The notes beneath the pieces are model-generated. The model made no database searches. It was not told where the DNA came from and worked only from the letters and a program-made list of their open reading frames with translations. DNA of 64,000 nt from a virus (lineage: Duplodnaviria > Caudoviricetes): positions 32,001 through 96,000 of the IMG/VR virus record IMGVR_UViG_3300014019_000001. One strand, given 5' to 3'. A program made the position numbers and the translations under genes. This document shows positions 7,724 through 58,770 of the stretch, one piece after another; the stretch's first letter is position 1, and every line of letters starts with the position of its first letter.

Positions 7724-8256
7724 TGGCGAGTGTTTTGGATCTCGATGCCGGCACTTTCACGATGAACAGCCAGGACGGGCCTTCGGTTCTGCGCGGTGGG
7801 TCGGTCCAGCTTTCGCAACTGGCACCTCGCGCTGCTGACCAGGACCCCGGCATGCAGGTGTGGTGCGAAGGCGAGCTTATCGGTTGGCTTGCCGTGGACC
7901 CGAATTACCTTCGTGGCGGCTTCTACGATCTCGTCATGATAGACGATCTTCCGTCGCTGACCGCCGGCTACGACGATCTGACGTCGCTGCCAGTCCCTTC
8001 ACCCCGTCAGATCAGTCTGCGCGTGGTTCGACGCACTGCCTCGATCTCTCTGTTCGAGGTCAACATGGCGAGGAACGAGGTCGAAGTGCAGGCGCTGTTC
8101 CGCAAGCGTCACAATGTTCCGTCGTCGGCCTCCATGGATCGGGACAACAACACCGACGCCTACGTCTTTCGGTGGCGCGTCTTCGATGTGACCGTCGCTC
8201 AGTCGGAAACCATCTTCGACCTGGACAACTTCACGCCCAATCCGGACCATCGCTAG
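7720..8256 (+). CDS. Hypothetical protein
   Basis: Coupled ORF, 178 aa. Confidence 0.6.
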   Translation: MMASVLDLDAGTFTMNSQDGPSVLRGGSVQLSQLAPRAADQDPGMQVWCEGELIGWLAVDPNYLRGGFYDLVMIDDLPSLTAGYDDLTSLPVPSPRQISLRVVRRTASISLFEVNMARNEVEVQALFRKRHNVPSSASMDRDNNTDAYVFRWRVFDVTVAQSETIFDLDNFTPNPDHR

Positions 8257-8274
8257 ACTTCGTTAACCAGAATC

Positions 8275-8325
8275 GGCTATCCGCTTTTAGCTAAATCTCG
8301 TTCTAGCGAAAGGCGGATATAGCCA
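8275..8325. promoter_or_regulatory. Octamer array upstream of parA (candidate parS/operator)
   Basis: GCTAAATC/GCGAAAGG-type 8-mers directly before the parA ATG; the same arrays are dispersed over 2-30 kb. Confidence 0.5.
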
Positions 8326-8973
8326 ATGAGCGAATTAGTGATCGCATGCCTGTCCCAGAAGGGCGGCGTCGGCAAAAGCACCCTCGCCCGTTTGATCGCC
8401 CGGACATACGCCTCGGCCGGCTGGAGCGTGAAGATTGCCGACTTCAACACGAAGCAGCTCACCTCGGTCGACTGGGTTGGAACACGGATGAAGCTCGGCC
8501 TTGAGCCGGTCATCCACGCCGAGCCCTATGCCTCGGTCAAGAACTTCAAGCGCGAGAACTTCGACCTGATCGTCGCTGACGGTAAGCCGGACAGCGACGA
8601 CACCTCGCTTGCCATCGCGCGCATCGCCCAGCTCATCGTCATCCCGACCGGTCTCTCCACGGACGACCTCAAGCCGCAGATCCTGTTCGCGAACGAGCTG
8701 GTGCAGAAAGGCGTGCCTCGGGATCGCATCATGATCGTCCTGAACAAGGTGACGGAGAGCGAAGCCTCGGTGCAGGAGGTTCGCCAGATCCTGCGCTCGA
8801 CCGGCTATCAGATCGCCGAATACGACCTGACGGCGAAGACTGGCTATCAGAAGGCTCAGGACGCCGGCCGCTCAGTCGCCGAAACGACCTTCCCAACGCT
8901 GAACGAACGCGCCGACGGTCTCGCTTCCGAGATCGTGGTCAAAATGAATGAACTGTCGGAGAAAGCAGCATGA
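8326..8973 (+). CDS. parA: ParA partition ATPase (type Ib)
   Basis: SQKGGVGKST deviant Walker A; short, with no N-terminal HTH. Confidence 0.92.
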   Translation: MSELVIACLSQKGGVGKSTLARLIARTYASAGWSVKIADFNTKQLTSVDWVGTRMKLGLEPVIHAEPYASVKNFKRENFDLIVADGKPDSDDTSLAIARIAQLIVIPTGLSTDDLKPQILFANELVQKGVPRDRIMIVLNKVTESEASVQEVRQILRSTGYQIAEYDLTAKTGYQKAQDAGRSVAETTFPTLNERADGLASEIVVKMNELSEKAA

Positions 8974-9209
8974 CGAAGACACCGACGAAAGCTCCGGTCC
9001 CGAAGCCTGCAAGTCTGAAGATGGATTTCATGGCCCAGGCCACGCAGGCGGCCGCCAACAACATGTCCGACAAGCTGAAGGATATGAGCTTCAAGGTGCC
9101 GGAGGAGTTTCATCGCCGCTACAAGTCGGCGGCCGCAATGCATGGTATCCAGATGAAGGACATCCTTGAGCAGAGTTTCGAGCTCTGGCTCAAGCGCGCA
9201 GACCAATAG
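8970..9209 (+). CDS. Ribbon-helix-helix partition protein (ParG/omega-like)
   Basis: 79 aa, coupled to parA; MSFKVPEEFHRRYKSAAAMHGIQMKDIL RHH pattern. Confidence 0.75.
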   Translation: MTKTPTKAPVPKPASLKMDFMAQATQAAANNMSDKLKDMSFKVPEEFHRRYKSAAAMHGIQMKDILEQSFELWLKRADQ

Positions 9210-24776: not shown

Positions 24777-25107
24777 CCGAAGAACCCTCCGCAGGCGAGC
24801 ACGATCAGGGTGATGAGGGTGACGACGATCTGCACGGGCGCGCGAATGACGACCTCCTTCCCGTTCTTGGATGCTGCCGCGATCATGCCGAAGGCAAGCC
24901 ACGCGAGGATGACCCACTGCGGCCAGCCGAAGGATGCGACGTTGATCATTCCATTTCCTCTCTCGTTTTGCGCTATAGGTAAGCGCTTACTGATCATGCT
25001 CGGGGTCAAAGCGCCTTGGTCGGACAAGGCTTCCCACGAGTTTCGGGGTGCTACTGAAACGCCCTCATGCGTGACGGAGTTCGCACATACCCGCCGACAA
25101 GCTAAAC

Positions 25108-25194
25108 TGGAGTGCTGAGCAGGATTCGAACCTGCGACGCCCTTACGGGACCGGATTTGCAATCCGGCGCGTTCAACCACTTCGCTACCAGCAC
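25108..25194 (-). tRNA. tRNA-Cys(GCA) with a long variable arm
   Basis: Acceptor GTGCTGG/TCAGCAC, U73, CCA; anticodon arm CCGGA TTGCAAA TCCGG; variable arm CCC-GTAA-GGG; 87 nt. Confidence 0.85.
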
Positions 25195-25196
25195 GA

Positions 25197-25920
25197 ATGA
25201 CGATGGACACAAGGCAAGCTCGAAGCTGCATCCGGTTCTCCCGGATCACTACGGGCGATCAACTCCGCAAGCCATCGTCATCTTGGCGAGCTTCCATCGC
25301 GCCTCCCCAGGTGTCTTTTTGCGACTGAGGTCTACCTGGTTACACCTGCTTGCCGTCGCTATTCAGCGCCAGCGAATTTCTCCTGGGAGAGACAGCCAAT
25401 CTCTCCTTTCTCAGCGCCGCAGATTGTCGAAGGCTTTCTCCGCTGCGCCACTACTCAGCCCGTCAATTCGGACCCAAGACCTTGTTGCCCATTCGGGCGA
25501 AACTGGCGCTCACGAGAGGAGTCGAACCTCTAGCCGGCTGGCCTGTGACTTGCGTCACTCCGACTGCTTCCGACGTCACCCGACAGCTATTCGACCCTTA
25601 TCCGGAGTCCAGATCGACATCGCCTGGAAGCTAGAGCATTGTGCGGCACTCTCTCCGCCCGTCACGATTTCACTCGTCGCCGAGGTCGCGACCCTCGGAT
25701 GCCTTAATTTTCAGCCCACGCTGGAGACATAGGATAGCTACTCCTCGCTCCGTCACTGACCAGATCAACGCCCGCCTAGAATAGGCAGAAGATCCAGAGG
25801 CTACCGGCGCCCGTGGCGCTTGGGCAGTGGGCATTATCGGCGCTTCAATTCTGGCGTTACCGCCAACTCTGACGCACCAATCTCACTTATTTCATTCCCG
25901 ACACCTCATTCGCTGTTGCT
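25197..25920 (-). ncRNA. Large structured ncRNA, GOLLD-like candidate
   Basis: About 720 nt without a credible ORF, downstream of the promoter at 25950-25975; many hairpins, an internal T-arm, and long-range pairing ATGACGATGG/CCATCGTCAT; abuts the tRNA. Confidence 0.55.
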
Positions 25921-25992
25921 GTGCGATCTAACTAAGTGCTTACATATCTCTTATAACGCGCTTAGCGTCGGGTCACTATTGGATTCTTCAGG

Positions 25993-26346
25993 TCAGTAAT
26001 CGGAGGCGTAGAACAGGGACAGGACGCGGATGGTCACGGCGGGATCCTCCGGGTGATTGCTGCCGCTCTCCTCGTCCAAGGCGTAGTAGTCGATCTTGAA
26101 CATGAAGGGCTTGCTCTCGCCCTCAACCGTGAACGTGCCGAAATCGTGCTCATGGTAGGGATCATTGTCCTCCGGCCAGTCGTCGAAGGTTCGCAGCGCC
26201 TGGATGATCGGTGTCAGCCGCTCACGGTCAGGGCGTTCCCGCGCGAGATCGCCGGTAAGAATGCTGTGACCGTTGATCGATCTTCCGGTTGTCCGAAGCT
26301 CGTCGTTGAGATTGCGGGTGCGGATTTTCTTCTCTTCCTCTGTCAC
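25993..26346 (-). CDS. DUF3768-like protein
   Basis: LNDELR, DNDPYHEHDFG, FKIDYY, RVL. Confidence 0.75.
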   Translation of the reverse strand: MTEEEKKIRTRNLNDELRTTGRSINGHSILTGDLARERPDRERLTPIIQALRTFDDWPEDNDPYHEHDFGTFTVEGESKPFMFKIDYYALDEESGSNHPEDPAVTIRVLSLFYASDY

Positions 26347-40092: not shown

Positions 40093-40224
40093 TTCTCTCT
40101 CCGTCGCGCACTAAGCGCTTACTTATCTATCTATAGCGATAGCAAGGCGGGTTGCAATAGGATTCTTTCGGGGCCGAAGCGGCGCATCGCAGGATCGGGA
40201 CGCGCCGCTGGCTGGCGGCATGGC

Positions 40225-47977: not shown

Positions 47978-48095
47978 CTTTCTCTCTCTTCCTTTCGTGA
48001 GCGCTCTAAGAACTAAGCGCTTACTTATGTTGCTATAGCAGACGAGAAGAGGGTTGCTCACGGAATCTCGAGGCTCTTGATTCCGTGAGCGAGCG

Positions 48096-58706: not shown

Positions 58707-58770
58707 TTCTCTCTCCAGATGCTCTAAGCGCTTACTTACGTTATAGCGCTTAGAGCGAGGGTTGTTGCGG

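Follow-up and report, generated by a model that had tools for sequence, protein, structure and literature searches.

A candidate mosaic of small RNA modules beside the tRNA-Cys gene of a Rhizobiaceae phage-plasmid

Giant phage RNAs, tRNA-linked RNAs and the tRNA-Cys locus

The RNAs GOLLD and ROOL are large, structured and non-coding, are borne by phages and prophages, and often lie beside tRNA genes. Transfer-messenger RNA (tmRNA) and the bacterial Y RNA YrlA (RF02553) combine tRNA-like parts, an acceptor-like stem and a T arm, with a large insert of another kind, and the tRNA-like domain of tmRNA also ends in CCA. The tRNA cluster of phage T4 yields the stable RNAs rnaC and rnaD ('species 1 and 2'), small non-tRNA species that are co-transcribed with the tRNAs and cut out together with them. 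To our knowledge, phage tRNA islands and long gene-free leaders are mostly left without annotation. Here we analyze a gene-free stretch of ~800 nt in a 64,000-nt window of the virus record IMGVR_UViG_3300014019_000001 (116 kb), bounded on the minus strand by the end of a DUF3768-family gene at 25993 and by a tRNA-Cys gene at 25108–25194. A first-pass annotation had described most of this gap as one ~720-nt ornate, GOLLD-like RNA, or possibly a new class. Our comparison with other phages and plasmids indicates that the locus is a mosaic chain of exchangeable small RNA modules, not a giant GOLLD-like RNA. Three of the modules are widespread in phages and absent from Rfam, and the suggestion of a new class holds for the modules but not for the RNA as a whole. 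What is new here is a set of unclassified motif families in a locus of a known kind, phage non-coding RNA tied to tRNA genes; a literature search of incomplete coverage found no publication of these motifs.

The features of the locus, in order of transcription, followed by the motifs quoted in the first-pass annotation, are these:

25932–25975, minus strand: putative phage promoter and operator, assigned by motif recurrence, with a TATA-like hexamer (25950–25955) and a 12-nt palindrome (25932–25943) at or near the presumed transcript start
25713–25931, minus strand: lineage-specific leader of ~220 nt, including hairpin 25852–25865, without similarity to the Shinella and pLM21S1 relatives
25635–25712, minus strand: Module A, identified by covariance models and covariation, with a variable P1, P2 (25664–25677), a GACA linker, P3 with a GAGAGA-type loop, and ACA
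25638–25680, minus strand: two-hairpin core of Module A, from the sequence
25504–25637, minus strand: Module B, 134 nt, tRNA-shaped, from sequence and relatives, with a weak acceptor-like stem, a GNRA hairpin (25545–25558), a T arm (25515–25531), a discriminator G and CCA (25504–25506)
25484–25503, minus strand: H, identified by recurrence, a 20-nt hairpin with a 4-bp GC stem and a 4-nt loop, flanked on its 5′ side by a U-rich stretch; it follows immediately on the CCA of Module B and is also the first hairpin of Module C
25372–25503, minus strand: Module C, identified by comparison, a ~120-nt junction module made of H and a three-way junction, in which a stem closes off three hairpins and the purine-rich strands that join them are conserved
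25350–25379, minus strand: H′, identified from relatives, an extended H-type hairpin with the same flanks and loop and a longer stem
25195–25349, minus strand: lineage-specific tail, including helix 25272–25281/25197–25206, which has no Shinella counterpart, and hairpin 25230–25246
25108–25194, minus strand: tRNA-Cys (GCA), 87 nt, with a long variable arm, U73 and encoded CCA (ARAGORN; Rfam tRNA model, 61.6 bits)
24950–25107, minus strand: conserved trailer, then the next putative promoter and operator (palindrome 24979–24990) for a 57-aa membrane-protein gene and an HD-domain gene, from similarity and motif
25852–25865, 25545–25558, 25664–25677 and 25230–25246, minus strand: the four quoted hairpins
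25272–25281 and 25197–25206, minus strand: the two quoted helix arms
25515–25531, minus strand: the quoted T arm
25504–25514, minus strand: the quoted CCA-ending 11-mer
25812–25819, minus strand: its proposed upstream partner

Module exchange among syntenic relatives

The stretch is non-coding on the minus strand, and the motifs quoted in the first-pass annotation are all found there at the positions it gave. Its judgement that the gap holds no credible open reading frame (ORF) was also right: minus-strand ORFs reach at most 54 aa, a 206-aa plus-strand ORF runs antisense through the tRNA, and a Pfam search gave no match for any ORF of the gap. Translated searches (tblastn) against the relatives gave only short patches, which coincide with the conserved RNA modules, and the proteins flanking the gap of the Shinella plasmid map outside it.

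The host replicon is a B1VFA-like Rhizobiaceae phage-plasmid (Rhizobium-type). Its relatives are Rhizobium phage B1VFA, for which phage-plasmid features have been reported (PMC12509600), the 117-kb Shinella zoogloeoides plasmid NZ_CP132310 and the 117.5-kb Sinorhizobium plasmid pLM21S1. The gene order is the same on the Shinella plasmid, where a DUF3768 gene is followed by a gap of 754 nt, tRNA-Cys, a membrane ORF of 57 aa and an HD-domain gene with 69% identity to that of the window; gaps comparable to the window's are also present in pLM21S1 and B1VFA. The HD-domain protein, used as a search handle, led only to distant loci without the RNA region.

Pairwise comparison of the window's gap with those of Shinella, pLM21S1, B1VFA, the uncultured-phage contig L026 and Rhizobium phage RHph_N1_10 reveals no common parts other than Module A, H-type hairpins, tRNA-Cys and single modules. 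Specifically, B1VFA, the Shinella plasmid and pLM21S1 share with the window a 78-nt module, a 20-nt punctuation hairpin and tRNA-Cys. The shared combination differs from partner to partner, and the interior is swapped among syntenic relatives; one conserved 720-nt architecture is therefore ruled out. The single ornate fold of the first-pass annotation does not survive this comparison, as syntenic relatives replace its interior and the conserved pieces occur alone in unrelated phages and contexts.

Folding stability adds little to this picture. Hairpins are abundant, as had been noted, but their density is unremarkable against chance, with a whole-region z of −1.65 and single-segment values of +0.2 to −1.5 (leader 25713–25860, +0.17; Module B, 0.07; tail, −1.39). 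Evidence for structure must therefore come from comparison with other sequences. The helix earlier called long-range has both of its arms, but it spans only ~75 nt, in a stretch without counterpart in the relatives. The pairing proposed between the CCA-proximal strand and 25812–25819 finds no comparative support: the latter segment is common to no relative, and in the relatives the 5′ partner of the CCA-proximal strand lies directly after Module A.

A single giant RNA, GOLLD- or ROOL-like or of a new class, with one tertiary architecture, possibly multimeric, and with the tRNA attached, would suit a phage-borne locus of ~740 nt that has its own promoter and lies directly upstream of a tRNA, and its T-loop-type and GNRA hairpins are of the kinds that often make tertiary contacts in large RNAs. 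However, nothing but Module A, the H-type hairpins and the tRNA is common to the locus and its closest syntenic relatives, each conserved module is found alone in unrelated phages, the long-range pairings lack comparative support, the whole-region z is low, and no non-tRNA Rfam family matches above chance at E ≤ 10. We consider such an RNA highly improbable.

The Rfam comparison was made with cmscan, on the window at gathering thresholds and on 24800–26300 at E ≤ 10. At gathering thresholds, the whole window contains three tRNAs only. GOLLD (RF01998) has no match in either search, and ROOL (RF03087) none at E ≤ 10 in 24800–26300. ARAGORN reports no tmRNA; the tmRNA model gives at the locus only an 8.6-bit match to the T arm (gathering score 84), and position 70 of the acceptor strand is A, in place of the G3-U70 pair of tmRNA. 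Membership of GOLLD, ROOL or tmRNA (the two-piece form of Alphaproteobacteria included), which had been proposed for checking in this way, is thus contradicted, as non-tRNA families yield nothing beyond chance-level, sub-threshold matches. In addition, GOLLD, ROOL, tmRNA, YrlA, group I intron, C4 and ribozyme families were rejected as candidates at the locus, at its Shinella relative and at nine other Module A loci. A Y RNA was rejected because the locus has no YrlA match and the 116-kb phage genome no Ro60/TROVE gene, in searches with positive controls. A gene for a CCA-adding enzyme was looked for, and none was found. The locus thus differs from GOLLD and ROOL, which it resembles in adjoining a tRNA gene in a virus genome, in having neither a model match at E ≤ 10 nor an architecture conserved among relatives, but a chain of independently occurring modules.

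Modules A, H, C and B

Module A is a motif of three hairpins. Its P1 loop has 5–7 nt, and P2 starts with A-C and ends with G-U. A covariance model built with the window copy included (R1) has 64 matches in the 63 sources searched and scores the window copy at 86.8 bits (E 2.7e-24), while a model of the core built without the window copy (R2) scores it at 35.7 bits. Carriers comprise more than 70 uncultured-phage contigs, B1VFA, where Module A ends 5 nt before tRNA-Cys, and Escherichia coli phage D6. An 18-nt word from hairpin 25664–25677 is present in 22 uncultured-phage contigs and in B1VFA, and a second search anchored on P3 recovered 53 contigs with quite different P2 sequences. All three stems covary. 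P1 and P3 have compensatory changes in 9 of 15 pairs, and their G-U pairs fix the RNA strand. In an alignment of 26 of the 53 P3-anchored contigs, P2 is 100% paired, with double changes in 3 of 5 pairs and a covariation score of 0.384, compared with 0.090 in shuffles (0 of 500 reach the score) and at most 0.087 with the partner slid. Rfam has no match for Module A here or in nine other loci.

Module A occurs in a single copy in the 116-kb genome and is strand-specific. Among 66 instances, a tRNA starts within 15 nt downstream in 5, a tRNA ends within 40 nt upstream in 6, and H follows within 12 nt in 5; at 11 loci, the stop codon of an upstream ORF lies 6–17 nt before the module. The neighbouring genes are mutually unrelated (integrase, DNA polymerase, TerC, DUF6378). 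Plasmids carry very few copies, the clear ones being those of the two related phage-plasmids. In two prophage-like contigs (L006 3741–4854; L018 151–1471), a tyrosine integrase gene ends just upstream, with Module A beginning 6 nt past its stop codon, and in the former a tRNA-Leu lies 205 nt after it. In the cultured E. coli phage D6, the two-hairpin core sits in a 1.2-kb gene-free gap, beside tRNAs and just before a terminator. This gap (L107 873–2108; MF356679 ~7850–9085), between a scaffolding-like gene and the tRNA genes, contains the core, a long hairpin and the terminator, which matches the 'dicF-like region' of P1.

The closest functional parallel is offered by the put RNAs of phage HK022 (putL and putR), which are RNA-only processive antiterminators (PMC9378689). 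Like Module A, they are ~70 nt long and multi-hairpin and are placed beyond a promoter or right behind a gene, putR being ~270 nt from the transcript start; they act in cis on the nascent transcript, as Module A may also do. Unlike Module A, which has three hairpins and another conserved core, put has two stem-loops. Homology was rejected, as R2, run at E ≤ 10 on the complete HK022 genome, finds nothing. Because Module A stands just behind stop codons and at the head of untranslated stretches, is single-copy and is strand-specific, it is probably a cis-acting read-through or stability element, put-like in function.

Alternatively, Module A could be a self-cleaving ribozyme of an undescribed class that cuts polycistronic and tRNA-array transcripts of phages. 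About half of its 65 nt is invariant outside the covarying stems, and the module occurs between genes and inside tRNA arrays, like hammerhead, twister and HDV-like ribozymes in phages. On the other hand, it matches no Rfam ribozyme and bears no mark of a cleavage site, and we rate this as the least probable of the readings considered here. A hammerhead core and an HDV-like strand order were also tried by eye, and neither fits.

Complementarity of Module A to 23S rRNA does not exceed that of shuffles. The window (25655–25665, minus strand) and phage D6 (L107 1501–1511) carry an identical 24-nt variant of the linker and P3, of which 11 contiguous bases are complementary to 16S rRNA 1399–1409, in the decoding center. 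This is probably chance, since pairing within P3 takes up half of the stretch and the family consensus is mismatched at one or two positions in it.

The H hairpin recurs in several positions: it directly follows the CCA ends of tRNAs (contigs L032 and L038), directly follows Module A (L026, L027, L067, L093 and L098), directly precedes tRNA-Cys in Rhizobium phage RHph_X66, and occurs in a ~300-nt leader of a major capsid gene. Its exact 17-mer is present in 18 uncultured-phage contigs, Rhizobium phages RHph_N1_10 and RHph_X66, Caulobacter phage CcrPW and five Brevundimonas jumbo phages; the named hosts are Alphaproteobacteria, and plasmids other than pLM21S1 nearly lack it. H is single-copy in the window's genome and is repeated 2–4 times, at 90–210-nt spacing, in pLM21S1, L026, L028, L029 and L037. 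The major capsid leaders of CcrPW and Brevundimonas phage Kabachok (L059 2398–2700; L060 2383–2702) are conserved and hairpin-rich, are ~300 nt long and contain H and a second H-type element.

The stem sequence of H resembles that of the lambda nut boxB hairpin, which we take to be a resemblance only. H shares with boxB a short GC stem, a purine-rich loop and a place in the leaders of long transcripts. Its loop, however, has four bases and is not GNRA-like, and no boxA partner is seen. Conservation of H across unrelated alphaproteobacterial phages favors a host factor over a phage N protein.

The extended hairpin H′ is 97% identical over 30 nt to its Shinella counterpart, which there directly follows the CCA of a tRNA-like element. 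Relative to Shinella, the window therefore has an extra cassette, consisting of H and Module C, between two H-type repeats. Module C is common to the window, RHph_N1_10 (in a 525-nt gap) and the uncultured contigs L004 and L039. The RNAalifold consensus of these four sequences contains 34 pairs, 16 of them with compensatory changes. A metagenome scan for further members listed at least 120 matches, none of those listed with the flanking features, and these were set aside as chance. RHph_N1_10 (L003 2890–3000) and L026 (13860–13972) have a further covarying three-hairpin module, absent from the window, with a T-loop-type hairpin inside its first arm (z = −3.9 and −3.2).

An ORF starts ~35–40 nt after Module C in RHph_N1_10 and L004, a ribosome site often follows Module A at 15–50 nt, and many unpaired bases are invariant in both modules. 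These points would suit a long regulatory leader, in which one or more modules would sense a ligand or protein and control tRNA-Cys or the downstream genes. Yet neither module overlaps a terminator or ribosome site, as an expression platform would, the genes downstream of Module A are mutually unrelated and sometimes tRNAs, and the window's downstream protein genes have their own promoter, leaving a regulatory leader no more credible than a giant RNA, that is, very unlikely.

Module B begins 2–4 nt after Module A, a place that tRNA-Cys itself occupies in B1VFA; at its 3′ end, the T arm is followed by an acceptor-type strand of 7 nt, the discriminator G and CCA. Like tmRNA and YrlA, Module B and its Shinella counterpart unite an acceptor-like stem, a T arm and a large insert foreign to tRNA, and Module B shares the CCA end with tmRNA; they differ from tmRNA in lacking both a tmRNA call and the G3-U70 pair. 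The pLM21S1 copy is 74% identical, with the GNRA hairpin fully compensated. The Shinella plasmid fills this slot with another element, of 127 nt, whose 7-bp acceptor stem is perfect and which also has a T arm and GCCA (z = −2.2). Over its last 27 nt, Module B is identical to the 3′ end of a D-arm-less tRNA-like gene in the tRNA array of a 198-kb phage (L056); that gene scores 25.6 bits, below the 29-bit Rfam tRNA threshold. This gene (L056 5340–5419; anticodon ACG, long variable arm) and a tRNA-like element with T arm and CCA in RHph_X66 (L228 548–625) are tRNA-shaped genes missed by ARAGORN. Module B itself has no tRNA-model match at E ≤ 10 and no ARAGORN call. The idea that its T-arm/CCA piece is an attP copying the 3′ end of a host tRNA was rejected: at the level of exact matches, the 22-nt pattern occurs in only two Verrucomicrobia fragments among 185,579 species genomes.

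These properties of Module B bear on the possibility that the locus is a decaying tRNA-gene island, with Module B and its equivalents being broken tRNA genes, the spacers junk, and A and H selfish or hitch-hiking repeats that do nothing for this phage. Module B is a tRNA 3′ half with a poor acceptor stem and no tRNA-model match, the T arm is missing from the pLM21S1 copy, turnover of the interior is fast, and uncalled tRNA-like genes stand in similar places in RHph_X66 and L056. Decay alone, however, would not maintain the pairing of Modules A and C by compensatory changes across distant phages or the full compensation of the Module B GNRA hairpin between the window and pLM21S1; furthermore, the locus keeps its own promoter and position in four relatives, and Module A is single-copy per genome and strand-specific, unlike a spreading repeat. 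A decaying island is the most serious of the rivals, and still an unlikely one.

The two ends of the gap show little conservation. Between the leader and those of B1VFA and RHph_N1_10 there are short look-alike words only, by eye, and within the tail only 25290–25348 resembles another locus (L026, 78% over 60 nt). Farther downstream, window 24945–25203 is 78.5% identical to Shinella.

The tRNA-Cys is conserved in B1VFA and the Shinella plasmid. This phage tRNA-Cys(GCA) has a stem-loop variable arm like that of a class II tRNA, yet U73 and the encoded CCA are kept. The long-arm, 87-nt type is common to the window, L002 344–430 and L057 4486–4572, B1VFA and the Shinella plasmid sharing it, while contig L032 (2151–2238) has an 88-nt tRNA-Cys with a different arm sequence. 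The tRNA-Cys of pLM21S1 and RHph_X66 are ordinary and have 76 nt.

Proposed transcription and processing of the locus, and its significance

Recurrence supports the promoter and operator that the first-pass annotation assigned to the RNA. The window contains 31 strand-wise matches to the palindrome motif (~20 sites), compared with 0.73 expected, and in most copies a TATA-like hexamer lies 3–6 nt upstream. At protein genes, a purine-rich ribosome site and an ATG follow 10–45 nt downstream of the palindrome; examples of sites are 58724–58735, 48013–48024, 40111–40122 and 24979–24990. The same promoter arrangement occurs after tRNA-Cys in B1VFA and RHph_X66. A generic sigma-70 scan found no promoter, and the assignment is made because the motif recurs. 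The palindrome probably marks the principal class of promoter and operator in this phage and is probably bound by a dimeric regulator, and transcription would start at or near it. As the RNA locus has its own promoter and the next gene a separate copy (24979–24990), we read the gap and tRNA-Cys as their own transcription unit. The earlier description of a promoter-driven, structured, non-coding phage RNA locus, co-oriented with and joined to a tRNA and having a T arm and a CCA end, stands in this respect.

We favor, with moderate confidence, a scheme in which this non-coding unit is transcribed as a string of modules and cut into tRNA-Cys and small RNAs, with Module A acting in cis. In this scheme, the ends of the transcript, the enzymes that process it and what each module does are inferred. 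A promoter at ~25950 would drive an RNA of ~830 nt that ends with tRNA-Cys and contains, in order, the leader, Module A, Module B, H, Module C, the second H-type hairpin, the tail and tRNA-Cys. A single precursor is the simplest reading because the modules share one strand and internal promoter motifs are lacking. Host RNase P would cut at the 5′ end of the tRNA and probably also at the 5′ end of Module B, and host RNase E would probably cut in the U-rich stretch before each H-type hairpin, which would then cap the downstream product; these cuts would release tRNA-Cys and several small RNAs. Mapping in Salmonella has established the RNase E site preference as purine, any base, cut, A/U, U, U. 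The proposed RNase E cleavage is suggested by the fit of the U-rich stretches to this preference, and cutting followed by a hairpin cap would explain the presence of H in capsid-gene leaders. Module A would keep RNA polymerase going, put-like and anti-Rho, or would protect or define RNA ends, and it is possibly a read-through element, an end-protecting element, a released small RNA or a ribozyme. The H-type repeats may also serve as recombination points for the exchange of modules between phages. Excision of small RNAs along with tRNAs would recall rnaC and rnaD of T4, with the difference that the window's modules also occur between protein genes and in capsid-gene leaders; this parallel is one of arrangement.

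Several observations weigh against this scheme. About 40% of the region (25713–25931 and 25195–25349) is without comparative support. Most copies of Module A lie 15–50 nt before an ordinary ribosome site, where help with read-through is little needed, and in contig L015 and phage D6 the module stands just before a terminator, which fits a small RNA or 3′-UTR (untranslated region) element equally. The stem of H hardly varies, which suits protein recognition or a DNA-level site as well as an RNase E site. Module B of the window has only 5 of 7 acceptor pairs and its pLM21S1 copy no T arm, so it may be a decaying tRNA gene.

A bolder extension of the scheme would have Modules A, H and C as three undescribed phage RNA classes, Module A as an RNA-only device of phages of Alpha- and Gammaproteobacteria, the cultured D6 and B1VFA among them, that guards RNA polymerase or the transcript against termination or decay in untranslated stretches like tRNA arrays, and H-bounded cassettes as units traded like the protein genes of integrons. 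We put this forward tentatively, as a possibility that is doubtful at present.

In our analysis, a phage gap separates into defined and covarying RNA modules, which dozens of unrelated phages also carry and for which Rfam has no entry, and the case warns that not every large phage gap beside a tRNA is GOLLD-like. The question can be put directly to experiment, since there are cultured carriers: B1VFA on Rhizobium leguminosarum VF39SM, D6 on E. coli C600, and the plasmids of Sinorhizobium (pLM21S1) and Shinella. Small RNAs from this locus, should they act in trans, would enlarge the set of non-coding RNAs of phage-plasmids, of which little is known. Should Module A control read-through or the stability of RNA, phages would have in it a general, host-independent tool for expressing untranslated RNA, and synthetic biology a compact part.

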